Part shown: one piece after another, positions 27,528-52,190 of the stretch
How positions within the stretch are numbered: the first letter of the stretch is position 1
Layout: every line of letters starts with the position of its first letter
Virus genome (UHGV): UHGV-0277313
Strand: one strand, 5' to 3'
Source of the DNA: a virus
DNA length: 64,000 nt
Notes under the pieces: model-generated
What the model saw: the letters and a program-made list of their open reading frames with translations, nothing else
Database searches by the model: none
Told to the model about the DNA's origin: nothing
Made by a program: the position numbers and the translations under genes

Positions 27528-27583
27528 CTCTTTCTAGTAATATAAACACAATTGTATCTCTATACAACTAAAAAGAAGAACAA

Positions 27584-27603
27584 AACGTCGTACGACTTAA
27601 TTA
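27584..27603 (-). promoter_or_regulatory. Palindrome-box motif (TTAAGTCGTACGACGTTTTGTTC on the minus strand) directed at 27270..27527
   Basis: Copy of TCGTACGA plus a GAAG/GTTC-type extension. One of the pair in the divergent intergenic region. Confidence 0.45.
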
Positions 27604-27685
27604 TGAAAATTTAAAAATAGAATGTAACAACAAATGGTGCATCAGAATGTCCATCAATAAAAATAACATGATTCATTTTAAATTA

Positions 27686-27705
27686 AGTCGTACGACTTGA
27701 AGGTC
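27686..27705 (+). promoter_or_regulatory. Palindrome-box motif AGTCGTACGACTTGAAGGTC ~38 nt upstream of 27744
   Basis: Exact GTCGTACGAC palindrome followed by TTGAAGGTC. Confidence 0.5.
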
Positions 27706-27743
27706 TATTGATCAAATGATGTTTTAGAATACAGGTTTGTTTA

Positions 27744-28382
27744 ATGTCAATCAATAATCAAGGTCGAAAAATAAAAGTAATTTATAAAGGTTCAACAAAG
27801 TTTGGACGTGTTTATAAAGGTGAACAGATAATTTTTGGAACAAAGTTTCATGATGTAAAAACTTTTACAGCGTCCGGAAGTTTTATCTTTCCAAACAGAC
27901 TGATTTCATTGACTATTACAGTTGTTGGTGGCGGTGGTGCATCTGGTGGTTGGTCAAATGATAGGCACGGTTGGTACACACCAAAACCTGGTCAAAACGG
28001 CGGAAAAGCTATACATTCACTGTCTAATGCAATTGATTATTCAAATAAAACTGTAACGTTTATTGTTGGTGATGGTGGAAAAGCTGGTGCTCAAGCCTGG
28101 TCTGGAAAATTTAACGGGTTTTATGCTTCTACCAAAGGCGGCGACAGTTCAGTTCCATTGTTTAATTTGGTTGCGACAGGTGGTTATCAAGGGTGGACTG
28201 CAGGAAACCCTCAATCTACTGATAACCAACCTGGTACGGCATCTGGTGGCAATACGTTCAATGGTGTTTCAACAGATGCATATCCTGCAAATGGTGGTGG
28301 CGCCCCAATTTCTTCATCGGTTGGTGCTGGCATTAATGGTGTTGTCGGTAAAGTAGTTTTTGATTATTACTATTGGAAATAA
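27744..28382 (+). CDS. Gly-rich structural-type protein (KVIYKG...TITVVGGGGASG)
   Basis: Paralog of 6948..7691 and 33744..34385. Confidence 0.6.
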   Translation: MSINNQGRKIKVIYKGSTKFGRVYKGEQIIFGTKFHDVKTFTASGSFIFPNRLISLTITVVGGGGASGGWSNDRHGWYTPKPGQNGGKAIHSLSNAIDYSNKTVTFIVGDGGKAGAQAWSGKFNGFYASTKGGDSSVPLFNLVATGGYQGWTAGNPQSTDNQPGTASGGNTFNGVSTDAYPANGGGAPISSSVGAGINGVVGKVVFDYYYWK

Positions 28383-29373: not shown

Positions 29374-29797
29374 AATAATTAAGCGGGTAACTTTATTTGT
29401 TACCCGCTTTTCTTTTTATATAGCTAATTTAAATTCCGGTGATTTAATTGCAGAAAGAAAATCTGGAAATTGTTTTACAACTGGTTCAATCATTTCGTCT
29501 TTTCTACACATACAGGTTATTCCATTGCTGTATAGGTAAAAACAAAACTCATCTGATACTTTAGTAATTAAGAATCTTTCTCCACAAAAGGTTTCTCTCA
29601 ATTGGAAGGCTTTAGGAAGTGCGATTTTAGACATAGGGGTTTCACCTTGTTTACAGTTGCACGGACATTATCAAGAACATCAACATCAACGTAATTCAAT
29701 CAGTTTTTGAATGACAGTTGCCCTTAATCAAATAATATTGTTGACAAATCTATCAATGCAATGATAATTTTTTAATTTGACAAAAATTAAACAAAAT

Positions 29798-30843: not shown

Positions 30844-30983
30844 CTTAACTTCCTTTTTTGTTTAACCAATGTAGACACTTTAGAATAACATTTTCAAAAT
30901 GTCAAGCTTTATTTGCAAACATATCTAAAAAACATTCATCACGTTCTTTTTATAAAGATTTTTATATTTAAACAGGTGTGAAT

Positions 30984-32087
30984 ATGAGCATTCGTGTTAA
31001 CGGTAAAGTGATTGCAAGTAATGGAGATGTTAAAACAGAAACTGATAACCTGGTAACCACTGATACTAATCAGACTATTACCGCAACTAAAGTATTCACT
31101 GCTGAACAGCAGAAGAAATCAACAGTTATCGATATTACAACACAGCCAGAAAATTACACTTCAAATAACGCTTTTCGTTTTCTAGATAAAAACGATCAAA
31201 TTTCTGGTTATATTGAAAATGGTCAGATGGCTTCTGGCGAAATTACAACAGGGATCCATGCAAAAAATAAAGATGGCTATCAACCTCATGTAAGTATTTT
31301 TGCACCTTTATCAGGTACAACCGGAGCTTATGCAATCGCACCTAGGACACCTGAAGACGCTCCTGATAATGCTATTACTACCATTGATTATGTGAAGAAT
31401 AACTATGTAGATAAGACGAGTAATCAGACGATTTCTGGTGTTAAAACATTCACGGCAAGTAGACCTGTTGAAATTATAGCTGATACCAATCAGCAAATAG
31501 TTCCTACTACCGACACATCTTGTGTGCTTGGATTATACCGTAATGCTACATATACAAAGGGAGATGGATTTTCGAGTTGGATACAAGGAGTTCGTGCTTC
31601 TAACGGGTTATCAACGAGCGGGATGTATGTAAGACGATTTCTTGAAAGTGATAGTCAGCCAATTGTAAACTATATTTCTGTACAAATAACAGCAGATGGA
31701 AGCCCTTTTGCCGTTACAAAAACACCCCCTGCTTATTGCGTTAATGAAGAAATAGTAACTGCTGCGTGGTTTAAGCAGTCAAACTGTAGCGTAAGAACAG
31801 TCATAGAAACATATCACAATGGCACTGAATGGTATCGCGTCTGGAGTGATGGCTGGAAAGAACAAGGTGGTGTTGTTTTAACTGGAAATTCGGCAACCCC
31901 CGTAACCGTGACACTTTTAACACCCTTTTCTGACGCAAATTATACTCTTCAAGCTACTTGCAACCCTCTAACAGTACAATGGGCACAAATGGTAGATTTG
32001 CAGATTGTAAATAAAACTGCAACATCTTTTGGGATAATCGCTAACCCGTCAAACAACAATAACAACTGGTTCGCCTGTGGTTATTAA
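30984..32087 (+). CDS. Tail-fibre-like protein
   Basis: VTTDTNQTITATKVFT and TSNQTISGVKTFT fibre repeats. YTKGDGFSSWIQGVRASNG...VRRFLESD shared with 40654..41397. Confidence 0.6.
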   Translation: MSIRVNGKVIASNGDVKTETDNLVTTDTNQTITATKVFTAEQQKKSTVIDITTQPENYTSNNAFRFLDKNDQISGYIENGQMASGEITTGIHAKNKDGYQPHVSIFAPLSGTTGAYAIAPRTPEDAPDNAITTIDYVKNNYVDKTSNQTISGVKTFTASRPVEIIADTNQQIVPTTDTSCVLGLYRNATYTKGDGFSSWIQGVRASNGLSTSGMYVRRFLESDSQPIVNYISVQITADGSPFAVTKTPPAYCVNEEIVTAAWFKQSNCSVRTVIETYHNGTEWYRVWSDGWKEQGGVVLTGNSATPVTVTLLTPFSDANYTLQATCNPLTVQWAQMVDLQIVNKTATSFGIIANPSNNNNNWFACGY

Positions 32088-33709: not shown

Positions 33710-33745
33710 CCAGTAGTTAAATTAATTGCTGGTCTTTATTTTTTT
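33710..33745 (+). terminator. Rho-independent terminator
   Basis: CCAGUAGUU...AAUUGCUGG stem with G-U pairs, then TCTTTATTTTTTT. Confidence 0.5.
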
Positions 33746-34385
33746 ATATTGTTCTAATCTCGACCCAACCAGACTGTCCTGTTGCACCAACGATTGTTGT
33801 GGATTGGTTTGTCCCACTCCCACCAGCACCTGGCCCTGTTAATGTTCCATCAACAAGTGAATAACCCCCGTGACCTCCAGCAACCCAACCGTCACCATTG
33901 TTACCTACCGAATTTCTGATTATTCGATAAAACGATCCTTGAACTGTAGCTGCAGCTCCCCCAGCACCATGCCCAATACCACCATTTCGTTGGCTATCAC
34001 CACCGCCTCCTCCTGAAATTGACACAAGACCAGATATAGATGAGCCACCACCATTTTGTGCCCATACGTTTCTATTTCCACCAGCACTTCCAGCTCCAAT
34101 GACAATTGACAATACAGTGTTTTTAATTAATTTTATATCACCAATAAATAAACCACTACTACCACCAGATGCAGTTGCTCCACCTCCACCACCACCAACA
34201 ACAGTGATACGATAGTTTTGTGATGTTGGGATTGTAAATGAATAGGTTCCTGAATTACGTATAGAAAATAAAACGGTATTTACAGGAAGAATTTGAAACA
34301 TTAATGAAGAAGCATGATAAACTTTTCCAATATTTCGACTACCTTTAATGGTGCAAATCAATTTATTTCCTTTATATATTGGCAT
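33744..34385 (-). CDS. Gly-rich structural-type protein (IYKGNK...RITVVGGGGGGATASGG)
   Basis: Paralog of 6948..7691 and 27744..28382. Confidence 0.6.
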   Translation of the reverse strand: MPIYKGNKLICTIKGSRNIGKVYHASSLMFQILPVNTVLFSIRNSGTYSFTIPTSQNYRITVVGGGGGGATASGGSSGLFIGDIKLIKNTVLSIVIGAGSAGGNRNVWAQNGGGSSISGLVSISGGGGGDSQRNGGIGHGAGGAAATVQGSFYRIIRNSVGNNGDGWVAGGHGGYSLVDGTLTGPGAGGSGTNQSTTIVGATGQSGWVEIRTI

Positions 34386-34442
34386 AGTTTAGATGTTCCT
34401 TCAAATGATGAATTATAATTAACATATAGTTCAAGAACGTTG

Positions 34443-34462
34443 AATCGTACGATTGTTTTATA
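34443..34462 (-). promoter_or_regulatory. Palindrome-box motif (AATCGTACGATTCAACGTTC on the minus strand) directed at 33744..34385
   Basis: TCGTACGA core with a GTTC-type extension. Confidence 0.4.
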
Positions 34463-34480
34463 AAATTGAAATTTAAAATG

Positions 34481-34500
34481 TATCGTACGAATCGAAGGTC
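34481..34500 (+). promoter_or_regulatory. Palindrome-box motif TATCGTACGAATCGAAGGTC ~35 nt upstream of ATG 34535
   Basis: TCGTACGA plus GAAGGTC. Confidence 0.45.
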
Positions 34501-34534
34501 TTTAAATAAAAGGATTGTTAAATTAGGAAAAGCA

Positions 34535-35731
34535 ATGTCTAACTATCAATTAACTCAATCGGTCGTTCAAGGTTTACTAAAAGACAAAAACACAATAATT
34601 GATAAATTTAATTCGAATAAAATTGTTTCAATTCAGCAAGATATTAAGTTAGAATTAAATGACGGTACTCTGATTTTAAAAGCTGGAAGTAAAGTATATA
34701 TACCTAATGGTAAGAATAGTGATGATAGCAATAAATTTGATGCAGTTACTATTGAGAATGATGTAACTTATTCTGCCGTATATACATCGGCCGTTAAATG
34801 TTATGCTGTATACGATTATTCAGCAAAAAGATTGCAAATAATTTCTTTAACTGATAATAGATTATCTTATGATTCTACAACAAATAAAGTAATTCATACA
34901 GAAATAACTGATAATGTTTTATCTTTTCCATTTGCTTTAGTAGTAAGAGATACAACTGGTATAGGTAGTGTTAACCAAATCTTCAATGGTTTTGGATACA
35001 TTGGCTCGACTTGTTATATTTTACCAGGTATTACCGGATATATTCCACAAGGATTAAATTCAGACGGAACTTTAATTAATGAAATAATCACACAAACAAA
35101 AGTGTCTTGTACAACAGTTACTTCATCATGGGGAACTGGTTCAGAATTATTCTTCTTTAATGGCATCGATAGCTATATTCATAGAGCTTCAAAAAATTGT
35201 TTTTATCAAGCAACACAACCTATAGTGAACGATGTTGACAATTATTGGTATAACACTGAAACTGGGAAATTTTATGAAACAAAAAATTCTGGATCATCTT
35301 GGTCTGAATTTAAAGCTATTCCTGCATTTACGATTACTTTTGATGAAGGGAAGATTACATCTTTAAAATCTTGTGGTGTACATGAATTAGTCAATTCAAA
35401 TGCAACGAATTTATCTGACTATGGAAGACAAGTTATTTCAGGTTTAGGAAAGCCTTCTAGCAAATATATTGATCTGACTGTCGGGGCTTCTGGAACGACT
35501 TATATCGCTCCAATGAATGGCTATCTTTATTGTAGTGGTCATGCCGATGCTTCACCTGCATATATATCAATTGATATTCCAAACTTACAATATTGTGGAA
35601 TAAATGGTGATGAAGGACAGGATTTAACAACAAATCAAATAGCATTAAAAATTGGTGATAAATTTACTCTACGCTATAGTAACACAACAATTAATGCTTT
35701 TAGGTTTGTTTATGATGAAGGGTGCTCTTAA
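34535..35731 (+). CDS. Tail-fibre-like protein (paralog of 38503..39789)
   Basis: DIKLELNDGTLILKAGSK, IFNGFGYIGST, YIDLTVGASGTTYIAPMNGY and RFVYDEG motifs. Shine-Dalgarno AGGAAAAG precedes ATG 34535; the track ORF from 34466 runs through the motif box. Confidence 0.55.
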   Translation: MSNYQLTQSVVQGLLKDKNTIIDKFNSNKIVSIQQDIKLELNDGTLILKAGSKVYIPNGKNSDDSNKFDAVTIENDVTYSAVYTSAVKCYAVYDYSAKRLQIISLTDNRLSYDSTTNKVIHTEITDNVLSFPFALVVRDTTGIGSVNQIFNGFGYIGSTCYILPGITGYIPQGLNSDGTLINEIITQTKVSCTTVTSSWGTGSELFFFNGIDSYIHRASKNCFYQATQPIVNDVDNYWYNTETGKFYETKNSGSSWSEFKAIPAFTITFDEGKITSLKSCGVHELVNSNATNLSDYGRQVISGLGKPSSKYIDLTVGASGTTYIAPMNGYLYCSGHADASPAYISIDIPNLQYCGINGDEGQDLTTNQIALKIGDKFTLRYSNTTINAFRFVYDEGCS

Positions 35732-36415: not shown

Positions 36416-36478
36416 ATTGTAGTGTTTGAGAAAAAGATCAGTTTGAAATTTGCTTCTCACTGATCTCTTTAAAATAGC

Positions 36479-37792
36479 TCAACATTCTAAACTATTATAA
36501 ATTTTATATAAATTTACAAAAGATTTAGATGACTTGAGTCTAAAAACTTCAGATTTAAACAAACCCAAAGAACGTCTGTATTTCACTCCAGATGTTTTTG
36601 CTATATCAAAGAGTTCTTTCCAAGAACTATAAACCCAGCTTGCTGATTCCTTCCATAGGTTGAACAAACTTTCAGCTTTTATAAGTTCTGGATAAAACCG
36701 ACCTTTGATATAACGGAAATTCGCACGACGTGCAATTTCCAAACTTGCTGCTATCGGGTCTGGTGCTTCGTTAAGCACATTCCCAATGAATGAAGAATAA
36801 ACTGGATTGACTTCTATGAAGTCTATTTTGTTAAGCAAGCATAGTTTCTTTAAAGCAGAAACCAAGCTATCTCTTTTCCATTTATTCTTCGTTAATCTAT
36901 TGAATGATTTACCTTTTCCTGAATTACCAATTTTGAAATTCAAATCTTCAATGCCAAATTTACCAACATGGAAAAATTTGCATTTTTTGATTATATCTTT
37001 CGCAATCTCTTTAAGCTCAAAGATTTGCTTGTTGTTTTGGTGCTTAGAGTCTTTATGAGAAGAAGATTTATGAAAATTTTTGGTAAAATAGGAAAGGTCA
37101 TACTGCTCTTTAAGTAATATCTTCCTCTTATCACCAGTCCATTTAGAAATAGAAAATCCAATATAATTTGGATTCATATCAATTGCGCCAATAACATTTA
37201 ATTTTCCATTATAATTGGAACAATAGATTTTGAAATCATCGAAAGCAATACAGATTTTATCTAATTTTAATTCAACACTAAAATTAGATAACTTCTGCTT
37301 GACTTGCTCTTCTAAGCTGATTAGTTCATATAAGTAATTCTTATGAAAGATAGGTAACTTCAAATAGATATGTTTAGTTTTAGAAAACTTAAAGATAATC
37401 TGGTTATTTGAGATATCCAACTTGAATTTACGATTTCCACCTTTTGGCGTTTCACCTTGAGAATAAATCCCTAAAAATCTATTTTCTTTGAAAATATTTT
37501 TATTTAACTTATGTTTTAATCTCTGAAAGAAATTAAATTTACCTCCAAATATAACATTTTCTTTATTTGCTGCAAGCAAATAACTTGCTTTCTTAATAGC
37601 ACACTGAATAAACCACGAATCCGAAGGAACATTTGATAAGCTTTTAGAAAGCAATCTAATGTCTTTTTCAGATTTTTCATCTTGAAAACGGTTATATGCA
37701 AATCTTACCATATTAGACGACTTACGAATTTCATCTCTGATGAAGATTCGATCATCGTCTGAACAAGTATAAGGTAAGCTAATTGTTTTCAA
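36479..37792 (-). CDS. TnpB/Fanzor-like RuvC-fold nuclease lacking the zinc finger (paralog a)
   Basis: RuvC-I VIGAIDMNPNYIGF and RuvC-II FGIEDLNFK. EVNPVYSSFIGN sits in the position of the TnpB VDPxYTSQxC motif but has no CxxC. RuvC-III-like APDPIAASLEIARRA. TTG start. ~85% aa identity to 46869..48176. Confidence 0.6.
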   Translation of the reverse strand: MKTISLPYTCSDDDRIFIRDEIRKSSNMVRFAYNRFQDEKSEKDIRLLSKSLSNVPSDSWFIQCAIKKASYLLAANKENVIFGGKFNFFQRLKHKLNKNIFKENRFLGIYSQGETPKGGNRKFKLDISNNQIIFKFSKTKHIYLKLPIFHKNYLYELISLEEQVKQKLSNFSVELKLDKICIAFDDFKIYCSNYNGKLNVIGAIDMNPNYIGFSISKWTGDKRKILLKEQYDLSYFTKNFHKSSSHKDSKHQNNKQIFELKEIAKDIIKKCKFFHVGKFGIEDLNFKIGNSGKGKSFNRLTKNKWKRDSLVSALKKLCLLNKIDFIEVNPVYSSFIGNVLNEAPDPIAASLEIARRANFRYIKGRFYPELIKAESLFNLWKESASWVYSSWKELFDIAKTSGVKYRRSLGLFKSEVFRLKSSKSFVNLYKIYNSLEC

Positions 37793-37795
37793 TTT

Positions 37796-37875
37796 ATAAA
37801 CCTTAGGAAATTTTATAGTTTAATTTATGTTAAATTAGATTTAGTTAGATGTCAAGACTTATTTTAAAAATAATC
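37796..37875 (-). repeat. Conserved 5' leader of the TnpB-like gene (ends in the TATTTTTAAAATAAGTCTTGA motif)
   Basis: Matches the leader of 46869..48176 (46788..46868) and the solitary copy at 35826..35904. Confidence 0.5.
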
Positions 37876-38430: not shown

Positions 38431-38450
38431 ATCGTACGACAGATTTAATA
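38431..38450 (+). promoter_or_regulatory. Palindrome-box motif (AATCGTACGAC..., weak second half) upstream of 38503
   Basis: TCGTACGAC core ~62 nt upstream of the ATG. Confidence 0.35.
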
Positions 38451-38502
38451 ATAAATATTTAATTTAATGTTCTTTTATTAGTTAAAATAAAGGAGCATTA
38501 AA

Positions 38503-40515: not shown

Positions 40516-40556
40516 TGTATTTTTCCTAATTCATTTGTTTTCAATAATTGCAGAAC

Positions 40557-40576
40557 TTTAAGTCGTACGAGTAAAA
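40557..40576 (-). promoter_or_regulatory. Palindrome-box motif (ACTCGTACGACTTAAAGTTC on the minus strand) directed at 40198..40515
   Basis: TCGTACGAC plus TTAAAGTTC. Confidence 0.45.
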
Positions 40577-40599
40577 ATTTTTAATTCATAAAATAAACT

Positions 40600-40619
40600 A
40601 TTCGTACGACTTGAAGTTC
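40600..40619 (+). promoter_or_regulatory. Palindrome-box motif ATTCGTACGACTTGAAGTTC ~35 nt upstream of 40654
   Basis: TCGTACGAC plus TTGAAGTTC. Confidence 0.45.
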
Positions 40620-40653
40620 TTAAATGTAGTAATGTCAATAAAGGTTAAATGCA

Positions 40654-42249: not shown

Positions 42250-42253
42250 ACAA

Positions 42254-42276
42254 AAGGCCGAATAGAATCGGCCTTT
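42254..42276. terminator. Bidirectional terminator hairpin
   Basis: AAGGCCGA-atagaa-TCGGCCTT followed by TTTTCTT. Confidence 0.65.
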
Positions 42277-42279
42277 TTC

Positions 42280-42783
42280 TTATTCTGGAATAAAATAAAA
42301 CACATTTGCATCAGGGTTTGCAGGTAATGTTGACACAATTTGCATTTTGGAATTAAACCATTTATTAGTTAATATTTGGTTATCATTACTTCCATCAACT
42401 GGCGGCGTTGGTGCAGTAGCAAATGTTGAACCATCACTTCCACGAACACCAACAGCTAAATTGGCATAATGATCAGTCCCTTCAACATTATGATGTGCAG
42501 TTAATTGCATAACTGCATCTTTTGTTGGCGCACCACTATTCAGAAAAGACTCACAATAACCTGTATTTAAATCACCTTTTCTAAAAATTAATGATCCTGA
42601 CCATGTGTTTGAATCTGAAGCTTTTGATGCCATAATAACATCTGTACGTACAGTATCTGTTGACATATCGAATGTTTTCAAAGACTTGATTGTTTGAGGT
42701 TCATTAAGTGTTACAGCACTGTCTAAATCTGTTTTTAAATCTTTGACTGAATTGATTTCTAGTTTATGTGATGTAATCGGCAT
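42280..42783 (-). CDS. Tail-fibre-like protein (short)
   Basis: LNEPQTIKSLKTFD fibre repeat. NDNQILTNKWF resembles the IATTAW motif. Confidence 0.5.
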   Translation of the reverse strand: MPITSHKLEINSVKDLKTDLDSAVTLNEPQTIKSLKTFDMSTDTVRTDVIMASKASDSNTWSGSLIFRKGDLNTGYCESFLNSGAPTKDAVMQLTAHHNVEGTDHYANLAVGVRGSDGSTFATAPTPPVDGSNDNQILTNKWFNSKMQIVSTLPANPDANVFYFIPE

Positions 42784-42851
42784 GTGAATACCTTTCTAAA
42801 AGAACACTATAAAATAGAACATTTTAAACAGTTGTCACACAGAGTTAAAGT

Positions 42852-43349
42852 TCAAATTAAATTCAATACAGATTCACCTGCTTGACGGTACAGATCTTCA
42901 ACTTGATTGAAACAATCAGATATGTGTTCAAAATTTATAATTTGTTTCTTAATGATAGGTCTTGATGGTATAAGATTGTTATTAACAACTAAATCATTTT
43001 TAGCAAACGTAAATTCAAAATTCTTTTTTAAAATGATTAATGAAGTCTGATTTATTTCAATAGCAAAGAAACTTTCTTTAACTTGTTTGATCTTTATCAA
43101 CAAGCAATTGCCATTCCAACCTGAATTACATAAAAAAGTTTCAAGTTTATTTAGAAAACCATAAACATCATAAGTTTCTAAATCAGGTCCACTTCTTCTG
43201 TTAAGTAAAGTAGGAAAATTTTTATAAAGCTCAACAATTGAAAATAATACTAGAGGGTAATTCTTATATTTTTGTAAGAAGATTTTCTCATTTATTTCAA
43301 AAACTTTATGATTTCCTTCTGTACCTAAATTGTAAATATTTCCTTGCAT
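42852..43349 (-). CDS. Hypothetical protein
   Basis: 165-aa ORF. Confidence 0.5.
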   Translation of the reverse strand: MQGNIYNLGTEGNHKVFEINEKIFLQKYKNYPLVLFSIVELYKNFPTLLNRRSGPDLETYDVYGFLNKLETFLCNSGWNGNCLLIKIKQVKESFFAIEINQTSLIILKKNFEFTFAKNDLVVNNNLIPSRPIIKKQIINFEHISDCFNQVEDLYRQAGESVLNLI

Positions 43350-43354
43350 TTAGC

Positions 43355-43843
43355 TCAACACAAACAATTATTAATATCTTCAAAAGAAGTTGTAATTGGA
43401 ACTGTTAATTCTTTTCCATTATAATTAATTAGATAATTTTTAGAAAATGAATTATAAACAATATACAACTTTACACCTTTTTCTATTAAATAATTAGGAA
43501 TATCACTAACATATTCCACACGATTCGCACATTGAATTTGTTGAAAATCAGTCAACGTATAAGAGTATTCCGTATAAACAGGTTTTTTTGTTGGTATATA
43601 ATTGATAGTTCTTCTTTCTTGTTTTACACAAGCAGAGAACGAAACCAAATCACCCTTTTTGAACTTAACGTTATTATCAACAAGGTTACAGTTTACCTTC
43701 AATTTATCAAGCATTTTAATACCATCAAGCATTACGCCTTTTAACAACATATATTCACCATCATTGTAAATACTATATTCATGAAAAGTTGCAACATACT
43801 TCATACGGCGGTTTGAACCGATTGAACACAAATCTTTGAACAT
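43355..43843 (-). CDS. Hypothetical protein
   Basis: 162-aa ORF. Its stop lies 5 nt upstream of the start of 42852..43349. Confidence 0.5.
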   Translation of the reverse strand: MFKDLCSIGSNRRMKYVATFHEYSIYNDGEYMLLKGVMLDGIKMLDKLKVNCNLVDNNVKFKKGDLVSFSACVKQERRTINYIPTKKPVYTEYSYTLTDFQQIQCANRVEYVSDIPNYLIEKGVKLYIVYNSFSKNYLINYNGKELTVPITTSFEDINNCLC

Positions 43844-43983
43844 ACTTTTTCCTTTTTATTTTTATGTTAATCATATAAATTAAATTATCAGAATAAAGCA
43901 CAAAAGTCAATTTTAAATATTTTATGAATAAAGCTTTATTGTGTTCTTTTAATTGCTTGGAATATAACTTAACAGGTGATAAA

Positions 43984-44679
43984 ATGGCAACACACAAAAT
44001 CGATAGCAAACAAATTGATCCGGCAACTGTTGCAACAACAGGTTATGTATCGAACTCAATAGATGAATTCGCTGGTACAGTAAATGTATCTTCTATTATG
44101 CGTACATCCGGTGACCAAACTATTTCAGGCACCAAAAGTTTTAGTGGCAAGCTAAACTATACTGCCACTATTGACGCTGCTGCAAACGATCAGCAACCTG
44201 CCACAACAGCATGGTGTAATTCAGCAAGTAGTATTGTTCACAAGACTGGCGATGAAACAATCAACGGGAATAAAACATTTTCTGAAACAATTAACGGTAC
44301 AGCAATGTATGCTAATTGGGGTGACCTTGCTGAAATGTATAATACAGATTTTAATTATAAAGAAGGTACTTTAGTTCAATTTGGCGGTGAAAAAGAAATG
44401 ACACTTGCTATTTCTGAAGCAAATGGTGTAATATCTTCTCAACCCGGTTTATTGATCAATAACAACAAGGAAGACAACATGCAACCGATCGCTTTAATAG
44501 GTAAAGTTCCTGTTCGTGCTGTTGGTATTGTACATAAATTTGACAGAATCACATTGTCTGATATTCCTGGCGTTGCTAAAGTTGCTAAAGATGGTGATAA
44601 AGTTATTGGTGTAGCTTTAGAAAATAAATTAGATGATGATGAAAATTTGGTTTTGTGTTCAGTTAAACTAAAATTCTGA
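43984..44679 (+). CDS. Tail-fibre-like protein
   Basis: Shine-Dalgarno AGGTGA precedes ATG 43984. GDQTISGTKSFSG, NDQQPATTAWCN and GDETINGNKTFS motifs. Confidence 0.55.
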   Translation: MATHKIDSKQIDPATVATTGYVSNSIDEFAGTVNVSSIMRTSGDQTISGTKSFSGKLNYTATIDAAANDQQPATTAWCNSASSIVHKTGDETINGNKTFSETINGTAMYANWGDLAEMYNTDFNYKEGTLVQFGGEKEMTLAISEANGVISSQPGLLINNNKEDNMQPIALIGKVPVRAVGIVHKFDRITLSDIPGVAKVAKDGDKVIGVALENKLDDDENLVLCSVKLKF

Positions 44680-45089
44680 TGAAGAAACATCTATTAGATA
44701 AAAGAAATTTATCATATTTGATCAACGACTGGGATGATTTAAATCTTCCGTTTACTATAAACGATAATGATATTGCATCTCAAGTCGTTGATTTCTTTTG
44801 TAAACAATCTGAATTAGTATATCCGGCAAAATCATATTTTGTTGCTATCGTTTATGCAAAATGTCTTGAAAACTTCTTTCATGAAGATTTTTATGAATGT
44901 TTGTCTGATAAAGATCTATTACCTGATGATAAGTTTTTCAAAACATATATTGACTCTCAAGAAATTTATGATAAGATATTAACACAAATTAAAGACCCGT
45001 TAACATATAAATCTGTCGAAAAGACTGTAAGTTATTTTAAAAAGGAATTTCTTATTGGAACTAATAATCAAACCAACAGGCCGTTGTAA
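44679..45089 (+). CDS. Hypothetical protein
   Basis: ATGA overlap with the upstream stop. Confidence 0.45.
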   Translation: MKKHLLDKRNLSYLINDWDDLNLPFTINDNDIASQVVDFFCKQSELVYPAKSYFVAIVYAKCLENFFHEDFYECLSDKDLLPDDKFFKTYIDSQEIYDKILTQIKDPLTYKSVEKTVSYFKKEFLIGTNNQTNRPL

Positions 45090-46014
45090 CTTTAATTGCA
45101 AATTCTGTAGCGCTAATTTATTAAGCATTAAGCATCAAACAAAAGTACCAAATGAATTAATCAAAATAATTCAAACTATAAAGCCAAACAGTCTTATTTT
45201 TACAGGTGGGGATCCTTTATTAGTTGGCCCTGGATATTATTATGAAATTTTATCTTTAGGTAATTTTTCTATTTCATTAACAACAAACCTAAAAGATTAT
45301 TACATTCAATCAAAAAAATGGATTGATTTATTCAAAAATAAGCGTGTCGGAATTTGCACATCTTTTCAATACGGAAATGAACGCATGTGGAATTCTGAAC
45401 AGGTTTATAGTGAAGATGTATTTAAAAAAGTTATGAAAAGATTTAAAGAAGATGTTGGTTATACACCTTCGTTTATTTCAGTCATTTCTAAATCAAATGA
45501 GGATAAAGCATTAGATCATTTATATCTTGCAAAGGAGTTGAAAACTAAATGCAAGATTAACGGCGTCTTGCCGATCGGATTGTCAAAAGAATATTACCCT
45601 TTATATAAAATGATCGATATTTGGTTGCAAATAAAAGAAAATAATCTTGAAAAATATTGGGACAACAAAATTCAATTTCACAATGGCGGTTGCAATTTTA
45701 ATACAAACTTAATATGCTCAAGCACCATTCGCTCTTTCTGGCTTGATAACAACAATAACATACATTATAATAATTGCGAAGATTGTGCTGTACGTGGCTC
45801 TCGTATTCCTTTAGATACCAACATAGTTATCCCTAAAGAAGAAAATCTGAAGCCAGAACAATTGATTTCTCAAGACTGTTTATGTTGTGAACTATGCAGG
45901 CTATGCAATGCTTGTAAATCAACAAGACAATCAATTCTTGATAAACAGACTTTTTGTTCTGAAATGAAAAAACGGAAACAGAAGATATTGGATGCTAAAT
46001 GGAAAATCTATTAA
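45055..46014 (+). CDS. Radical SAM/SPASM-like enzyme (array B, 1)
   Basis: IKPTGRCNFNCKFC and FTGGDPLL motifs. C-terminal CLCCELCRLCNACKS. Confidence 0.65.
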   Translation: MELIIKPTGRCNFNCKFCSANLLSIKHQTKVPNELIKIIQTIKPNSLIFTGGDPLLVGPGYYYEILSLGNFSISLTTNLKDYYIQSKKWIDLFKNKRVGICTSFQYGNERMWNSEQVYSEDVFKKVMKRFKEDVGYTPSFISVISKSNEDKALDHLYLAKELKTKCKINGVLPIGLSKEYYPLYKMIDIWLQIKENNLEKYWDNKIQFHNGGCNFNTNLICSSTIRSFWLDNNNNIHYNNCEDCAVRGSRIPLDTNIVIPKEENLKPEQLISQDCLCCELCRLCNACKSTRQSILDKQTFCSEMKKRKQKILDAKWKIY

Positions 46015-46802
46015 CTGCACTGTATGTAATTCCGAATTATCAATGCAATCTGGCATGTCCACATTGTACATTGCACAATTATAATATAGAGTACGATGAA
46101 GAAACATTTATAGATACATTGGTTAAAACGAACGCCAAAAAATGCATTCTATTTGGTGGTGAGCCATTGTTGTATTTTGAAAGATTTAAACGTATTTTGG
46201 AAACTAAAAAGATTCACTCAATATCAACAAATCTTTTATTACTATCAAGAGAATCACTCAATTTAATTAAACATTACAATATTAGTATTGCAACTTCTTG
46301 GAATTTAAAAAGATTCACAAACGATCAATTAAATAAATGGTTTGACAATATTAAAAATGTACAATGTGATGTTTTAATAACAATGACAGACGATTTGATA
46401 ACTAAAAGCGGTACAGAAAAAATGTTTGAAATTTTAGAACATTTAGAAAATTTTGGTACTGTAAAAAATATTATTTTCGAACAAGTTGTCGATGATAGAA
46501 TGGATGAACAACATTATGAACAAGTTGACAACTGGTTGTGCAATATACATGATAATTGGCATTTTAAAATGAATAATGCTATCGAAGATAAACTAGATAA
46601 ATGCATTCTGGATTGTTCAAAAGTTAAAACACTTGAACCTAACGGTATCTTGCATAATGGTTGCCCACAATTTAAAACAGTTCATATTGTTAACAAATGT
46701 TTAAGTTGTGAATTAAATAAAATTTGTAAACCATGTATTTTACAAAAACATTGCACGTTTCCTACAAAACTTTACAACAAATTAAAGGTTATTTTAAAAT
46801 AA
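45999..46802 (+). CDS. Radical SAM/SPASM-like enzyme (array B, 2)
   Basis: CNLACPHC and LFGGEPLLY motifs. C-terminal CLSCELNKICKPCILQKHC. Confidence 0.65.
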   Translation: MENLLTALYVIPNYQCNLACPHCTLHNYNIEYDEETFIDTLVKTNAKKCILFGGEPLLYFERFKRILETKKIHSISTNLLLLSRESLNLIKHYNISIATSWNLKRFTNDQLNKWFDNIKNVQCDVLITMTDDLITKSGTEKMFEILEHLENFGTVKNIIFEQVVDDRMDEQHYEQVDNWLCNIHDNWHFKMNNAIEDKLDKCILDCSKVKTLEPNGILHNGCPQFKTVHIVNKCLSCELNKICKPCILQKHCTFPTKLYNKLKVILK

Positions 46803-46868
46803 GCCTTGATTTTTAAATTTTTATAATTTATAATAAATAAAAATAAAGAATTTTATAAGGTTTATAAA
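46788..46868 (+). repeat. Conserved 5' leader of the TnpB-like gene (begins TTATTTTAAAATAAGCCTTGA)
   Basis: Same length and ~70% identity to the revcomp of 37796..37875. Overlaps the 3' end of the rSAM gene. Confidence 0.45.
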
Positions 46869-48176
46869 TTGAAAACAATTAGTTTGCCATATACTTGTTC
46901 AGAAGACGACCGAAACTTCATCAAAGATGAAATTCGGAAATCGTCTAATATGGTAAGATTTGCTTTCAACAGATTCAAAGATTCTAAGTCTGAAAAAGAC
47001 ATTAGATTGCTTTCTAAAAGCTTATCAAATGTTCCTTCGGATTCTTGGTTTATTCAATGTGCAATCAAGAAAGCAAATTATCTGTTATTAACCAATAAAG
47101 AAAAAGTTATTTTCGGAGGAAAATTTTATTTTTATCAAAGATTAAAACATAAATTAGATAAAGACAGGTTTAAATCAAGTAGATTGCTTGGGATTTATTC
47201 TCAAGGTGAAACACCGAAAGGTGGAAATAGAAAATTCAAACTAGATATAGCGAACAATCTAATCATTTTCAAATTCTCAAGATATAAATACATCAATCTC
47301 CAGTTACCTAAACTTCGTAAGAATTATCTTTATGAACTAATCAACTTAGAAGAGCAATGTAATCAGAAGTTATCTAATTTTAGTGTTGAATTAAAATTAG
47401 ATAAAATCTGCATAACGTTTGATGATTCCAAAATCTATACAAGTAATTATAATGGAAAATCAAATATAGTCGGTGCTATTGATATGAATCCTAATTATAT
47501 TGGATTTTCTATTTCTAAATTTTCAAATGGAAAAAGGAAGATTTTGCTCGAAGAGCAATATGATTTGTCTTACTTTACAAGAAATCTTCATAAAGCAACA
47601 GATGATGCTAAAGGTAAGCACCAAAACAGCAAACAGATATTTGAGCTTAAAGAGATTGTGAAAGATATAATCAAGAAATGCAAATTTTTCCACGTTGGAA
47701 AATTTGGCATTGAAGATTTGAATTTCAAACAAACAAATTCAGGAAAAGGTAAATCATTCAATAGATTAACGAAGAATAAATGGAAAAGAGAGGCACTGGT
47801 TTCTGCATTGAAGAAACAATGCTTACTTAACAAAATAGACTTCATAGAAGTTAATCCAGCTTATTCTTCATTTATTGGGAACCTATGTAATAATGCACCA
47901 GACCCAATAGCAGCAAGTTTGGAAATTGCTCGTAGGGCAATGTTCAAGTATATCAAAGGTCAGCTCTATCCAGAACTTATAAAAGTTGAAAGCTTGTTCA
48001 ACCTATGGAAGGAATCAGCAAGCTGGGTTTATTCGAGCTGGAAAGAACTGTTTGATATAGTAAAAACATCTAAAGTGAAATATAGACGTTCTTTGGAATC
48101 TTTTGATTCTGAAGTTTTTAGACTCAAGTCATCTAAATCTATGGTAAATTTATATAAAATTTATAATTGTTTATAA
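46869..48176 (+). CDS. TnpB/Fanzor-like RuvC-fold nuclease lacking the zinc finger (paralog b)
   Basis: Same motifs as 36479..37792 (IVGAIDMNPNYIGF, FGIEDLNFK, EVNPAYSSFIGN, APDPIAASLEIARRA). TTG start. Inserted between rSAM genes. Confidence 0.6.
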   Translation: MKTISLPYTCSEDDRNFIKDEIRKSSNMVRFAFNRFKDSKSEKDIRLLSKSLSNVPSDSWFIQCAIKKANYLLLTNKEKVIFGGKFYFYQRLKHKLDKDRFKSSRLLGIYSQGETPKGGNRKFKLDIANNLIIFKFSRYKYINLQLPKLRKNYLYELINLEEQCNQKLSNFSVELKLDKICITFDDSKIYTSNYNGKSNIVGAIDMNPNYIGFSISKFSNGKRKILLEEQYDLSYFTRNLHKATDDAKGKHQNSKQIFELKEIVKDIIKKCKFFHVGKFGIEDLNFKQTNSGKGKSFNRLTKNKWKREALVSALKKQCLLNKIDFIEVNPAYSSFIGNLCNNAPDPIAASLEIARRAMFKYIKGQLYPELIKVESLFNLWKESASWVYSSWKELFDIVKTSKVKYRRSLESFDSEVFRLKSSKSMVNLYKIYNCL

Positions 48177-48195
48177 TAGTGAGTTATTTTAATAA

Positions 48196-49302
48196 ATGAA
48201 TCCTTTAGAGTTTTATAAAAATAGTGATTACTATGAAATTGCTTGCATGTTATTTGAACCTTGCAATTTAAAATGTAAATTTTGTTTTGAAGATCATAAA
48301 AACAAAACAATCGACACAGATTACATTGAGAATATTTATAAAATAATTGATGAAAAGTTTTCGATTGATTATGAAAAATACAAACATTCTTTAAAGACAC
48401 TTTATATAATGATGTGGGGTGGCGAGATTTTTTATGACGCACTACCTGATGAAGTTTTTAAATCATATTACAAATTTGTCGATAATATAAAAGATTTGTT
48501 TGATAAAAAATTTCCAAATGTTAAAGTTATCTTTTCATGGTTATCAAACGGTGTATTTACAAACTATAAACGTGTCGAAGATATTGTCAAATATTCAAAA
48601 GGAATTATTAACTTTAGTTATGATCCTGTTAACAGATTCTCAACACATAAACAAAAAGATTTAATGGTAAAGACCGCAACCTATTTTAAAAAAATTGGTT
48701 TAGCTGATAAAATATCAATTACATTAACAAAAGACTCTATTAAAGGTTTTATTGAAAATGATGATTCATTAAAATACTTTAACAATATTGGATTCTTAAT
48801 TGATGTAAATTACTATATCGCAAATGTCAACTGGCAATCACTATTAGCGACAGACAATGAAATATTTACATTTTTTAAATGGGCAATAGATAACAAATTG
48901 TATAGAATAAAAGTATTGGAAAAATGTTTTGATTCTATTACAGGAAAGCCTTCATCTTCATATTGTAACTGTTTATGGTGTTCACAAATTACACATGGTC
49001 AATGGAGTATTGATTGTGCTAAATGTAGTTCGGTATTGCCACCAGAATTGTTTTACGGTGAATATACGCCACAAATAACAGAAGAAAATTCAAATCAAAT
49101 TAAGGCATCTATTGGATTAGTTAAACGAGGTTGTTTAGCTTGTGAATATCACCACATTTGTCAACACCCTTGTTGGATTTCCATAGTGTTTAAAGGATTT
49201 AAACCTTCAGTTTGCTTTTATAAACAAACTTATGATTATATAAAATCAAATGATGTTATTATTAATGATTTTTTGAAATGGAAACACAATGAAACAAAAT
49301 AA
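48196..49302 (+). CDS. Radical SAM/SPASM-like enzyme (array B, 3)
   Basis: CNLKCKFC and MWGGEIFYD motifs. C-terminal CNCLWCSQ...CAKCSS...GCLACEYHHICQHPC. Confidence 0.65.
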   Translation: MNPLEFYKNSDYYEIACMLFEPCNLKCKFCFEDHKNKTIDTDYIENIYKIIDEKFSIDYEKYKHSLKTLYIMMWGGEIFYDALPDEVFKSYYKFVDNIKDLFDKKFPNVKVIFSWLSNGVFTNYKRVEDIVKYSKGIINFSYDPVNRFSTHKQKDLMVKTATYFKKIGLADKISITLTKDSIKGFIENDDSLKYFNNIGFLIDVNYYIANVNWQSLLATDNEIFTFFKWAIDNKLYRIKVLEKCFDSITGKPSSSYCNCLWCSQITHGQWSIDCAKCSSVLPPELFYGEYTPQITEENSNQIKASIGLVKRGCLACEYHHICQHPCWISIVFKGFKPSVCFYKQTYDYIKSNDVIINDFLKWKHNETK

Positions 49303-50365
49303 TTTAAACAGTTTCGGTTTTGATTGTCTACTATTTGAACGTTGCAATCTTCATTGCACTTTTTGTCTTGAAGAACATTCTGTAAATGATATTGACATTC
49401 AATGGATCAGACAACTTCCGTCATTGTTATTAGAAAGATTTGAAAAAGAATATGAAAAACATTCTGAAACAAATCTTATTACTTTTCGTATTTGGGGAGG
49501 CGAATTGTTTTTTGATGCCATACCAAACGAATTATTTGAAGAATATAAGATGTTTGTTGAACAAACAAAACGTTTATTTAATAAAACTTTTCCTGAAATT
49601 AAATTAGATTTTGCATGGGTTTCAAATGGTGTATTTAAAAATATCGAACGTGTTATTAATTTATTAAAAGAAACTAATAGTGGAATTAATTTGAGTTACG
49701 ATCCTATAGGAAGGTTTCATAAAAAAGAATTAGAAGATTTAATGATTGAAAACGCTTTACACTTTCATTCATTGGGATTGTTGAATGAAATTTCAATCAC
49801 ATTAACTAAACATTGTATCAATGCATACGTAAACGATAAATCTCGACTTTTGGATTTAAAGTTCGCTAAAAAGATTGATATTAATTACTATATACCAAAC
49901 ATTAACTGGAAAACTTTACTTCCTTCTGACGACGATCTTTTCAACTTTTTTAAATGGGCAATCAATAATAAACTGTTTCAAATTATTGATCTGAATAGCT
50001 TGTTGTTAACACTGACTGGAAAAATGTCTAAATGTGTTAAAGGTTGCAACTGCCATAAACATTTATCAGCGTGTAAAAATTGTATTACATATAACTGTGT
50101 TAAAAGCTCAACAATATTTCCAAATGCAGATTTTTATGGTGATACAGTTATTACTGAAGACAACGTATCTGAAATTAAAAAATATAAAGGCATGTGCAAG
50201 CGAGGTTGCTTCTATTGTAAATATATAGATAAATGCCCCGGATGTTGCTGGACATCTATTATCTATAAAAATGCTACACTAGACGATTGCCCGTTCAAAA
50301 AAATTATAGAATATGTCGAACAAAATTCAAATATAAAAAATGAATTCATGCAATGGAAACTTTAA
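49289..50365 (+). CDS. Radical SAM/SPASM-like enzyme (array B, 4)
   Basis: CNLHCTFC and IWGGELFFD motifs. C-terminal CNCHKHLSACKNC...GCFYCKYIDKCPGCC. Confidence 0.65.
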   Translation: MKQNNLNSFGFDCLLFERCNLHCTFCLEEHSVNDIDIQWIRQLPSLLLERFEKEYEKHSETNLITFRIWGGELFFDAIPNELFEEYKMFVEQTKRLFNKTFPEIKLDFAWVSNGVFKNIERVINLLKETNSGINLSYDPIGRFHKKELEDLMIENALHFHSLGLLNEISITLTKHCINAYVNDKSRLLDLKFAKKIDINYYIPNINWKTLLPSDDDLFNFFKWAINNKLFQIIDLNSLLLTLTGKMSKCVKGCNCHKHLSACKNCITYNCVKSSTIFPNADFYGDTVITEDNVSEIKKYKGMCKRGCFYCKYIDKCPGCCWTSIIYKNATLDDCPFKKIIEYVEQNSNIKNEFMQWKL

Positions 50366-51252
50366 ACAATTTATCAATACAACCATCCTTTAAATGCAAT
50401 TGGAATTGTCAATTTTGTTATTTAGGTAATTTAAAAGCTGATACAACACTTTTAAATCTTAAAGTGTTAAAAGATAACCTATATGAAATTAAACAATTTT
50501 ACAAAATTAATCATGTACAAGTATTAGGTGGTGAGCCAAGCTTGCTTAATTGCTATTATTTGGAAGAGTTACAAGGATTAATTAAAGATTACCATGTTAC
50601 ATATGTCACTAATCTTTCAAACATGGAATTCGTAAATTTTTGCTTACAGCACAATGTGCAAATGACAATATCTGTCAATAAAGAAAGACAACACTTTGCA
50701 GAAACAGTAAAGAATTTAAAATTAATTAAAGGCTTGAAGAATATTCAGTTAAGCAGTGTCGTCTTACCTTCATTATTAAATGACGACATTAAAAATATTT
50801 TACAATTCTATAATTCTTTTGGGTTTGATGTATATTTCTTGAAGTATAATGCTTCAAAAACAAACAAACTTAATTACAACATAACAAATGAAGAGTACTA
50901 TAAATTTATTGATGAATTAATCAAACAATATCAGGTTGGGTGCTATAAATTTAAAATCAAAAATATTGATTTCTTGTTGCAAGACAATATTAATGCTATC
51001 AGTTGTGACTCGTTATTTATAAACCCTAATGGTAAATTTTCAACGATTACATATAATGACAACAACGAAGAGTATTTTGTTGAATTTGACACTGTTGAAC
51101 AATTTAATAAATTTTGTAACAGCACTAATGTAAAACAAAAAGATACGTGTAAACAATGCCTTTGTTATAAACAATGTGGTTCAAAAAATATTTATAGTTC
51201 GGATCAAAATAAATGCATGAATCTTTTTAAAATAAGAAATGAATTGCTATGA
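50353..51252 (+). CDS. Radical SAM/SPASM-like enzyme (array B, 5)
   Basis: CNWNCQFC and VLGGEPSLL motifs. C-terminal CKQCLCYKQCGS. Confidence 0.65.
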   Translation: METLNNLSIQPSFKCNWNCQFCYLGNLKADTTLLNLKVLKDNLYEIKQFYKINHVQVLGGEPSLLNCYYLEELQGLIKDYHVTYVTNLSNMEFVNFCLQHNVQMTISVNKERQHFAETVKNLKLIKGLKNIQLSSVVLPSLLNDDIKNILQFYNSFGFDVYFLKYNASKTNKLNYNITNEEYYKFIDELIKQYQVGCYKFKIKNIDFLLQDNINAISCDSLFINPNGKFSTITYNDNNEEYFVEFDTVEQFNKFCNSTNVKQKDTCKQCLCYKQCGSKNIYSSDQNKCMNLFKIRNELL

Positions 51253-52178
51253 AAAATTTAACACTATCAATAATGCCTTCATATAAATGCAATTTCAAGT
51301 GTCAATATTGTTATTTGGGTAATTTAATAAAAAATGACAACCTTTTAAATTTAGAAAATCTTGAGCATTCATTACTAGAATTAAAACAACTATATAACAT
51401 TAAAAATGTTAGTCTGTATGGTGGCGAACTATCATTACTTGATAACGTTTATTTACAACGTTTAGTGGATTTAATAAAAGTTAAATTACCTAAATCAAGT
51501 ATATCTTTAACAAGTAATTTTAGTAATGAAAATATATTAACTTTTTGTTTGCTTAATAATATCAAACTAAACGTTTCATTAAATGAAGAAAGATACCAAT
51601 ACTCAAAAACATTACAACAAATAAAGAAATATACAGGAACAAAGCTTTTTGATCTAACTGCTGTCGTATTACCATCTATTATAAACAAACATACAAATGA
51701 ACTTTATAAATTTTATAATGATTTAGGATTTGATGTTTTCTTTATTCAACATCATAATTCAATTCATCAAAAATCATATTCCATTTCACTAGATCAATTC
51801 TCAAAATTTTTATACGATTTCATTTGTTATCATTCAATGCAATCTGATGCTAAATTTAAAATCGAAAATTTAAATGTATTAAATGATACAGAGTTCAACC
51901 CAAACACAGAAAGCTATTTATTTATAAATCCAAACGGAAAATACTGTACAACTGTTTTTAAAGATAATATCGAACATTATGTAACATTCGACAACTTACA
52001 ACAATGGCAAACCTTTTGTGAAAAAAGCTATCAAATGTATGAAAATTCTTGTTCGACTTGTAAATTCTTTAACAGATGTAAAGCTGAACACCTTGAAACA
52101 TTAAACAATGATAATGAATGTTCCGGGTTAAAACACCTATTGACATCATTACAGAATCGTTCTATTATTAATTGGTGA
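51249..52178 (+). CDS. Radical SAM/SPASM-like enzyme (array B, 6)
   Basis: CNFKCQYC and LYGGELSLL motifs. C-terminal CSTCKFFNRCKAE. Confidence 0.65.
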   Translation: MKNLTLSIMPSYKCNFKCQYCYLGNLIKNDNLLNLENLEHSLLELKQLYNIKNVSLYGGELSLLDNVYLQRLVDLIKVKLPKSSISLTSNFSNENILTFCLLNNIKLNVSLNEERYQYSKTLQQIKKYTGTKLFDLTAVVLPSIINKHTNELYKFYNDLGFDVFFIQHHNSIHQKSYSISLDQFSKFLYDFICYHSMQSDAKFKIENLNVLNDTEFNPNTESYLFINPNGKYCTTVFKDNIEHYVTFDNLQQWQTFCEKSYQMYENSCSTCKFFNRCKAEHLETLNNDNECSGLKHLLTSLQNRSIINW

Positions 52179-52190
52179 GTCGTACGACGG
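52178..52190 (+). promoter_or_regulatory. Palindrome-box core AGTCGTACGACGG immediately upstream of 52200
   Basis: Same GTCGTACGAC palindrome as the fibre/Gly-rich promoters, but only 10 nt from the ATG. Confidence 0.3.

Follow-up and report, generated by a model that had tools for sequence, protein, structure and literature searches.

A strict palindromic box beside a GTTCTT element upstream of fibre and glycine-rich genes of a huge gut phage: a candidate composite promoter signal

Late promoters of the T4 type consist of a single short -10-like element without a -35 element, lie a few tens of nucleotides (nt) before virion genes, and are kept apart from the host sigma70-type early class of the same genome. 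In the late promoters served by Mu C, P2 Ogr and P4 Delta, a palindromic site is fixed beside a weak or partial core and coordinates late or morphogenetic operons. Conserved promoters may also flank variable cassettes, as in the mobile PeSL cassettes of T4-like phages and the linkers at module boundaries of mosaic phages; a PeSL combines an early promoter with a stem-loop and borders small open reading frames (ORFs) of the hyperplastic region. Huge gut phages of ~300 kb are known from metagenomes alone, and their transcription programmes are uncharted. Here we describe two elements that share features with each of these systems in a 64,000-nt stretch (hereafter the window) of virus genome UHGV-0277313, which belongs to an uncultivated gut phage of ~300 kb: a perfect 8-bp palindrome, TCGTACGA (the box), and a directional hexamer, GTTCTT (the core). 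In the literature we found no report of TCGTACGA in phages, nor of promoter motifs of huge phages, and none on the source samples.

The box occurs eight times in the window against 0.23 expected, and in none of 100 shuffles were eight or more copies reached. Its copies start at 27588, 27688, 34445, 34483, 38432, 40563, 40602 and 52180. The first-pass annotation of this DNA, made from the letters alone, had described a palindrome present eight times, which is right for the 8-mer and wrong for the 10-mer GTCGTACGAC (three copies). Eight of the nine CGTACG sites in the window fall within box copies, and all eight boxes are intergenic, though intergenic DNA makes up 9.6% of the window (0.096^8, ~7e-9). 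Since one-mismatch variants are at chance level (11 against ~9 expected), the functional set is strictly 8/8. Three divergent regions (27522-27743, 34386-34534 and 40516-40653) hold two boxes each, and single boxes stand upstream of 38503 and of 52200, in agreement with the positions given by the first pass. Where it had placed the paired copies ~35-55 nt before the ATG, the distance from box end to ATG is 44-66 nt for seven copies and 12 nt at 52180. No sigma70-like match of at least 10/12 (TTGACA/TATAAT, 16–18 bp apart) was found at any box promoter, confirming an earlier remark to that effect, and no terminator-like site (GC-rich hairpin plus T run) coincides with any box. The hairpin at the 38432 box is weak (-2.6 kcal/mol, z = -1.1). 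The third divergent promoter (P4 below) is a long inverted repeat with a DNA fold of -17.9 kcal/mol (z = -5.75); such long inverted repeats are to be expected at the divergent promoters, which contain two mirrored copies of one 20-bp signal. Rfam covariance models gave no match at gathering score across the whole window.

Related sequences come from two lineages. To the same species complex, at 97–99% identity, belong contigs of 277–310 kb in several gut-type metagenomes as well as LR756497.1 (309,049 bp). Accessions neighbouring the latter (LR7565xx, not that record itself) are metagenome-assembled huge phages (PMC9723777). The second lineage, at 70–90% DNA identity, is represented by ERZ808258.5 (= IMGVR_UViG_3300013426_000013; 313 kb; hereafter the relative). 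A scan of viral contigs with the 18-mer formed by the box and its presumed extension returned 53 matches, 52 of them in unrelated conserved coding sequence of higher-GC phages; one relevant contig, of 313 kb, remained.

The boxes stand in three arrangements with respect to the core. Type A is TCGTACGA-N6-G(T/G)TCT, directed at the flanking gene; type B is box-N29-GTTCTT; and type C is GTTCTA-N15-box-N12-ATG. Six window copies, forming the three divergent pairs, are of type A, while the copy at 38432 is of type B and that at 52180 of type C. G(T/G)TCT lies exactly 6 nt outward of the box in 6/6 paired window boxes, in a pair left of the window (L098) and in nine boxes of the relative. Overall the N6 spacing is found in 17 of the 23 known box copies, and one box of the relative has N5. 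The spacer itself is weakly conserved (consensus cTyrAw), which is why the extension TT(G/A)AAG proposed by the first pass fits some copies only: the extended 18-mer is exact in three copies, a fourth has two mismatches, and the boxes at 38432 and 52180 have no extension at all. What had been taken for part of the box is in fact the 6-nt spacer plus G(T/G)TC, the start of a separate G(T/G)TCT(T) element. Centre-to-centre distances within pairs are 38, 39 and 100 bp in the window, 41 bp in the L098 pair and 36–40 bp in the relative. As pair spacing varies and box-core spacing is fixed, each box belongs with its own core and not with its partner box. The boxes and their cores in the window are as follows.

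27588..27595: box, left member of pair P1; assigned to the minus-strand operon 27270-27521 / 26638-27255
27576..27581, minus strand: GTTCTT core, 6 nt from the left P1 box on the gene side, 54 nt before the ATG at 27521
27688..27695: box, right member of pair P1; assigned to the Gly-rich gene 27744-28382 (plus strand; Gly_rich_2, PF21722, E = 1e-7)
27702..27707, plus strand: GGTCTA variant core, 6 nt after the right P1 box; kept in LR756497
34445..34452: box, left member of pair P2; assigned to the Gly-rich gene 33744-34385 (minus strand; Gly_rich_2, E = 1e-9)
34433..34438, minus strand: GTTCTT core, separated by 47 nt from the ATG at 34385
34483..34490: box, right member of pair P2; assigned to the fibre-like gene 34535-35731 (plus strand)
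34497..34502, plus strand: GGTCTT variant core, 6 nt after the right P2 box; GGTCTA in the relative
38432..38439: single box, type B; GTTCTT follows after 29 nt, with the fibre-like gene 38503-39789 (plus strand) downstream of it
38469..38474, plus strand: GTTCTT core; the Shine-Dalgarno sequence AAAGGAG lies within the 28 nt that separate it from the ATG at 38503
40563..40570: box, left member of pair P4; assigned to 40198-40515 (minus strand), a truncated Gly-rich homologue
40551..40556, minus strand: GTTCTG variant core, 6 nt from the left P4 box
40602..40609: box, right member of pair P4; assigned to the fibre-like gene 40654-41397 (plus strand)
40616..40621, plus strand: GTTCTT core, separated by 32 nt from the ATG at 40654
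52180..52187: single box, type C; GTTCTA ends 15 nt before it, and the ATG of 52200-52826 follows after 12 nt
52159..52164, plus strand: GTTCTA, possible core, of uncertain status since it falls within coding sequence (3' end of gene 51249-52178)

The flanking modules are paralogous: their Gly-rich proteins share an MPI(Y/F)KG N-terminus and their fibres a C-terminus ending in RFVY. The earlier assignment of Gly-rich genes to the minus strand and fibre-like genes to the plus strand is only roughly right. The plus-strand gene at 27744 is Gly-rich and not a fibre, and the minus-strand genes 27270-27521 and 40198-40515 encode short proteins related to the N-terminus of the Gly-rich ones.

The second element became apparent when the upstream regions of these genes were compared with those of other fibre-like genes in the window. 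When hexamers were ranked without bias across 49 oriented upstream regions, GTTCTT came out top (15 regions against 1.46 expected, p = 6e-11), followed by the box hexamers and CTTGAC/TTGACA. It occurs 15 times in sense and once in antisense orientation, 16–54 nt ahead of start codons. The two cases at 16 nt are doubtful: the start codon of 25869-26498 is uncertain, and at 42800 the relative keeps, in place of the GTTCTT at 16 nt, a GTTCTA that lies 37 nt from the ATG; the gene 42280-42783 is probably served by this conserved GTTCTA. Positions flanking GTTCTT show no additional conservation, and GGTCT, GTTCTA and GTTCTG occur as variants alongside it. The gap from GTTCTT to the ATG contains a clear Shine-Dalgarno sequence and shrinks to as little as 24–28 nt, too short for GTTCTT itself to act as a -35 element; this would put GTTCTT near the transcription start, as a -10-like element. 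At least 11 genes that have no box have GTTCTT upstream. Sites outside the box promoters are these.

7709..7714, minus strand: GTTCTT without box, before the Gly-rich gene 6948-7682
8194..8199, minus strand: GTTCTT core, before 7801-8160
30943..30948, plus strand: GTTCTT without box, before the fibre-like gene 30984-32087 (Gp53-like_C, E = 4.6e-4, 21.1 bits, under the Pfam cut-off of 24.9)
42800..42805 (GTTCTT) and 42815..42820 (GTTCTA), minus strand: before 42280-42783; the upstream copy aligns with the relative
43943..43948, plus strand: GTTCTT without box, before 43984-44679 (BppL_N at E = 2.6e-13, within the cut-off; Peptidase_G2 at E = 1.9e-4, sub-threshold)
58738..58743, plus strand: GTTCTT without box, before the tail-fibre gene 58775-60526 (Collar domain, E = 9e-22)
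63068..63073, minus strand: GTTCTT without box, before the tail-fibre-like gene 62193-63038 (PHROG tail-fibre families)
15624-15629 (minus), 17652-17657 (plus), 26515-26520 (minus) and 29673-29678 (minus): other GTTCTT sites without box

Genes downstream of GTTCTT thus match Collar, BppL_N, Gly_rich_2 and PHROG tail-fibre families, with Gp53-like_C and Peptidase_G2 as further, sub-threshold matches; the element would drive tail-fibre, Gly-rich adhesin-like and other probably late genes. No upstream region contains both GTTCTT and TTGACA. Promoters of the form TTGACA-N17-TAnnnT are found ahead of the GcrA-like gene, of a PLP-like/QueC-like and a dNMP-kinase/thymidine-kinase operon, and of a TnpB-like gene. 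The T4 late consensus TATAAATA is present in no upstream region of the window and occurs 12 times in the 64 kb, both strands counted. By analogy with the T4-type late promoters, GTTCTT is most likely the -10-like core of a phage-specific promoter class without a -35 element. A perfect sigma70 consensus (TTGACA-17-TATAAT, 12/12) lies at 39797-39825, just past the fibre gene 38503-39789; it stands between late-type fibre modules, ahead of a conserved 113-amino-acid (aa) coiled-coil-like gene (39860-40201) that it is predicted to drive.

Both elements are conserved between the two lineages. The relative contains 13 perfect boxes, 13/13 of them upstream of Gly-rich or fibre genes: four divergent pairs, two of type B, one of type C, one single with N5 and one single with N6. 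The N29 geometry of type B is therefore seen twice (L054, 9929 and 11372), and the type C copy is at L090, 9981. A scan of the entire 313-kb contig with TCGTACGANTNNANGTTCT, a restricted type A pattern, found type A sites solely at Gly-rich and fibre genes; for types B and C, and for type A with different spacers, coverage was confined to the loci retrieved from it. In a three-way alignment of the P4 region (A2), only AAGAAC-N6-TCGTACGA(GTA) and T-TCGTACGACTT-AAGTTC are kept and the rest has diverged. Two further alignments (A1 and A3) agree, with box and GTTCT conserved and spacers diverged, and at the type B site the box, AATGTTCTTTT and the Shine-Dalgarno sequence are conserved. Box order and orientation are syntenic between the lineages. 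Contigs 99.6–100% identical to the relative (L136, L142, L153; L141, L145, L150, L151) are binned in two metagenome-assembled genomes whose labels conflict (uncultured Erysipelotrichaceae and Candidatus Melainabacteria). Contamination of the bins is the probable cause, so that the labels are no reliable guide to the host and were not used to assign one.

The box can be lost while the core stays. Upstream of the orthologue of 6948-7682 in the relative stands a perfect type A box; at the aligned position the window reads TCACATAA, with GTTCTT kept. In one strain (L105) the paired modules are absent, and TCGTACAA is found at the type B position and TTGTACGA at the type C position, with GTTCTT intact; in another (L106), TCGTACGG and TCGTAAGA adjoin truncated or replaced genes. 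The three box-core geometries, together with box loss at orthologues that keep GTTCTT, indicate that the palindrome is an add-on separable from the core.

For both elements the analysis shows non-random occurrence, orientation, a fixed spacing, conservation and modularity. On these grounds we favour, with moderate confidence, a composite signal made up of a GTTCTT promoter core and a TCGTACGA accessory operator of a receptor-binding-module regulon. Promoter activity and late timing of GTTCTT, like the binding of a protein to the box, are inferred from the sequence. The first-pass annotation had read the palindrome and its extension as a late promoter or activator-binding site coordinating a structural regulon: placement, orientation, the lack of sigma70 hexamers and conservation in the relative support this in part, and its error was to merge two separable elements, of which GTTCTT would fit "late promoter" and the box "regulator-binding site". 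The box has the dyad symmetry, the fixed position relative to a core and the conservation amid drifting flanks that mark operators, and its putative reader is probably a sequence-specific dimeric DNA-binding protein. Inside the GTTCTT class, the box would define a sub-regulon of receptor-binding modules.

In the mechanism we propose, host sigma70 holoenzyme would act on cTTGACa-type promoters in an early phase, and a phage-directed apparatus would later read GTTCTT as a -10-like core without a -35 element. The back-to-back modules (Gly-rich gene <- -> fibre gene) would carry one box per promoter, and a dimeric protein on TCGTACGA, centred ~10 bp upstream of the core, would place both promoters of a pair under common control. 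If GTTCTT spans -12 to -7, the box, usually 6 bp upstream, would be centred near -22, which resembles the placement of MerR-family operators. Boxes near -22 and ~+13 would be in keeping with repression or with a regulator that, like MerR, binds in the spacer, and the N29 position would suit activation.

Several observations speak against such a composite. Scans of the window proteins revealed no sigma factor, RNA polymerase or obvious DNA-binding regulator beyond the GcrA-like protein. That zero mismatches are tolerated over 23 box copies is unusually strict for an 8-bp transcription-factor operator, and a type C box 12 nt before the ATG is ill-suited to an activator model. GTTCTT has an information content of ~9 bits with unconserved flanks, and single sites without a box may be chance. 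Among cultured phages, megablast and tblastn found no relative and one weak fibre-domain match only. Small ORFs neighbouring the boxes encode no recognisable ribbon-helix-helix or helix-turn-helix regulator. As to the GcrA-like protein, which the first pass had named as a candidate regulator, the link finds no support: GANTC occurs 177 times in the window against 181 expected, overlaps three of the eight boxes and does not belong to the conserved motif.

The rigid N6 in 17/23 copies, the strictly invariant box sequence and the absence of sigma70 hexamers from box sites would also suit a single 20-bp promoter recognised directly by a sigma factor or RNA polymerase that the phage dedicates to it, with the palindrome as an upstream promoter element. 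We regard this as unlikely: GTTCTT stands alone at 11 or more promoters and outlasts box loss at orthologous ones, the box is also found at N29 from the core and, in type C, on the far side of a core-like element at a distance of 15 nt, and a perfect palindrome suggests a symmetric dimer over a directional polymerase contact. To our knowledge, moreover, any known -35/-10 spacing is far longer than a 6-bp gap. Strict invariance could instead reflect the target of a methyltransferase, restriction enzyme or homing nuclease, methylation perhaps acting as an epigenetic promoter switch. An invariant perfect 8-bp palindrome with two CpG, GTAC and CGTACG looks the part, the decayed copies TCGTACAA, TTGTACGA and TCACATAA differ mainly at the CpGs, and a D12-class adenine methyltransferase gene lies near one module. 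This explanation is nonetheless very unlikely, as it leaves the fixed 6-bp link to GTTCTT and the restriction to fibre and Gly-rich genes unaccounted for; no enzyme of matching specificity was identified, the frequencies of GTAC, TCGA and GATC in the window are not unusual, and D12 (Dam-like) enzymes typically target GATC, which is absent from the box. The clear paralogy of the modules might lastly make the boxes functionless relics of repeated duplication of one ancestral module, an idea to which we attach hardly any weight: spacers have diverged or been resized (inter-box gaps of 28–92 nt) with every box still 8/8, one-mismatch copies are not in excess, and the type B and type C copies sit in unrelated contexts.

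A further set of explanations concerns rearrangement, and fibre cassettes are indeed exchanged from just downstream of these promoters. Across the P4 promoter the window and LR756497 match at 97% identity as far as 40635, ~14 nt past GTTCTT, and from there to the stop codon at 41390 they are unrelated; in LR756497.1 (L091, 12125-13000) the fibre gene 40654-41397 is replaced by a 76-aa gene and a 195-aa ALK_LTK_GRD glycine-rich protein. Two independent contigs (L087, L089) end ~37 nt beyond this divergence point. The boxes might then be recombination joints, either site-specific crossovers or homology linkers, through which receptor-binding cassettes are inverted, swapped or shuffled. Near-identical strains that differ by whole fibre cassettes starting just past the promoter, the rearrangement of fibre modules between strains, a serine recombinase encoded in the window and the long inverted repeat formed by each divergent promoter all point in this direction. 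The mapped boundaries do not: none of the three lies inside a box, and the cassette swap begins ~26 nt past it. In BRIT20-1 scaffold_10 (L092/L099), which shows a large inversion-like rearrangement relative to window 1-11312 and 39058-50824, window 1-11312 is reversed and adjoins a hybrid fibre gene, in which an N-terminal part of the fibre left of the window is fused to a C-terminal part of 38503-39789. This crossover sits within paralogous fibre genes and is therefore attributed to homologous recombination between them. The same scaffold lacks the whole P4 module (40224-41390), a deletion that runs from stop codon to stop codon. The invertase, for its part, has distinct repeats of its own, TTCAATTTACCTAATTTTAATG, at 60187-64000, and the synteny of box order and orientation across lineages at 70–90% DNA identity also speaks against such joints. 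With no sign of a crossover inside a box in the three mapped rearrangements, we consider recombination joints improbable, although the conserved promoter may serve as a passive homology linker. Equally improbable is a broader idea, that the palindrome is a switch for receptor-binding diversity in huge phages: a methylation or protein toggle choosing the adhesin/fibre module, or an integron-like joint exchanging promoter-less fibre cassettes.

The region 60187-64000 is itself a Gin/Min-like multi-inversion tail-fibre switch, unrelated to the boxes. Its serine recombinase (61046-61834) matches Resolvase (E = 2e-34) and has a weak C-terminal HTH_23 match (E = 2e-4) below the Pfam cut-off. At least five copies of TTCAATTTACCTAATTTTAATG surround it, one within the Collar-domain fibre gene 58775-60526 (60187-60214) and others, in both orientations, at 60799, 63110, 63394 and 63972; inverted repeats of 82 nt (60504/63641) and 75 nt (60758/63385) lie nearby. 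The boxes were tried as crossover sites of this invertase and rejected, the recombinase repeats differing in sequence and lying elsewhere; as rearrangement breakpoints they were rejected in the three mappable cases.

Other features of the region touch neither element. A TnpB-like gene (36472-37871; Pfam SSO2105_N, 437 aa) and its flanks are present in the window and absent from the 97%-identical LR756497.1, which makes it a recent insertion; a paralogue of 82% identity lies at 46869-48176, and classical TnpB/OrfB genes at 1186-2268 and 8347-9540. About ten paralogous radical-SAM-like genes with Cys-rich C-termini form arrays at 20218-23943, 45055-46802, 48196-52178 and 54308-55285, with others at 2367-4186 and 23936-25833. 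The arrays adjoin paralogous proteins of 312–319 aa and a QueC-like PP-loop protein (3329-4186), which suggests an elaborate modification pathway for DNA or peptides. Left of the window (L023, ~4900-6100; L098, ~1400-7200), a tRNA-cluster-like region, judged by eye, lies by the D12-class adenine methyltransferase and a further fibre/Gly-rich module (P0).

For one lineage of huge phages, these results amount to a testable promoter grammar: a host-type TTGACA class, a phage-specific GTTCTT class and, within it, a palindrome-tagged sub-regulon covering multiple adhesin and fibre modules that probably set host range. The grammar could be used to annotate late genes, to seek the late factor and the box-binding protein, and to build reporters. 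Cassette exchange just downstream of the promoters bears on the evolution of host range.

Set against the systems described at the outset, GTTCTT would share with the T4-type late promoters its shortness, its -10-like character without a -35 partner, its place some tens of nt ahead of virion genes and its separation from the sigma70-type class of its own genome. It differs in sequence, the T4 element being TATAAATA (~-13 to -6), read by gp55/gp33 and the sliding clamp, and in that the T4 promoters have no adjacent palindromic operator. Among the scanned window proteins (~64 kb plus flanks of the ~300-kb genome read) there is no gp55 or gp33 homologue. In a distant lineage (L154, L155; ~40% GC), homologous fibre genes are preceded, ~30 nt before the ATG and so at a distance comparable to that of GTTCTT, by (C/T)ATAAATA, the T4 late consensus, with no box, and TTGACA promoters precede the other genes. 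As with Mu C, P2 Ogr and P4 Delta, a palindromic site is fixed beside a core ahead of morphogenetic genes. The Mu C and Ogr sites are longer, lie further upstream (~-30 to -55) and stand beside sigma70 -10 elements, whereas the box has 8 bp, accompanies a non-sigma70 core and also occurs at N29 and downstream positions. The PeSL cassettes and mosaic-phage linkers share with this locus a conserved promoter next to variable cassettes, replaced from right after the promoter; here, unlike there, one of the three mapped boundaries abuts the promoter and none is in the box. An inversion system of the Gin/Cin/Min kind is carried by the same phage at 60.2–64 kb, with a serine invertase and crossover-like sites inside tail-fibre genes. 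The boxes, in contrast to such sites, have a different sequence, lie upstream of whole genes and do not bound segments found in alternative orientation. The sequences of the box and the core are thus new, while the kind of viral control signal they represent is familiar and fairly ordinary.

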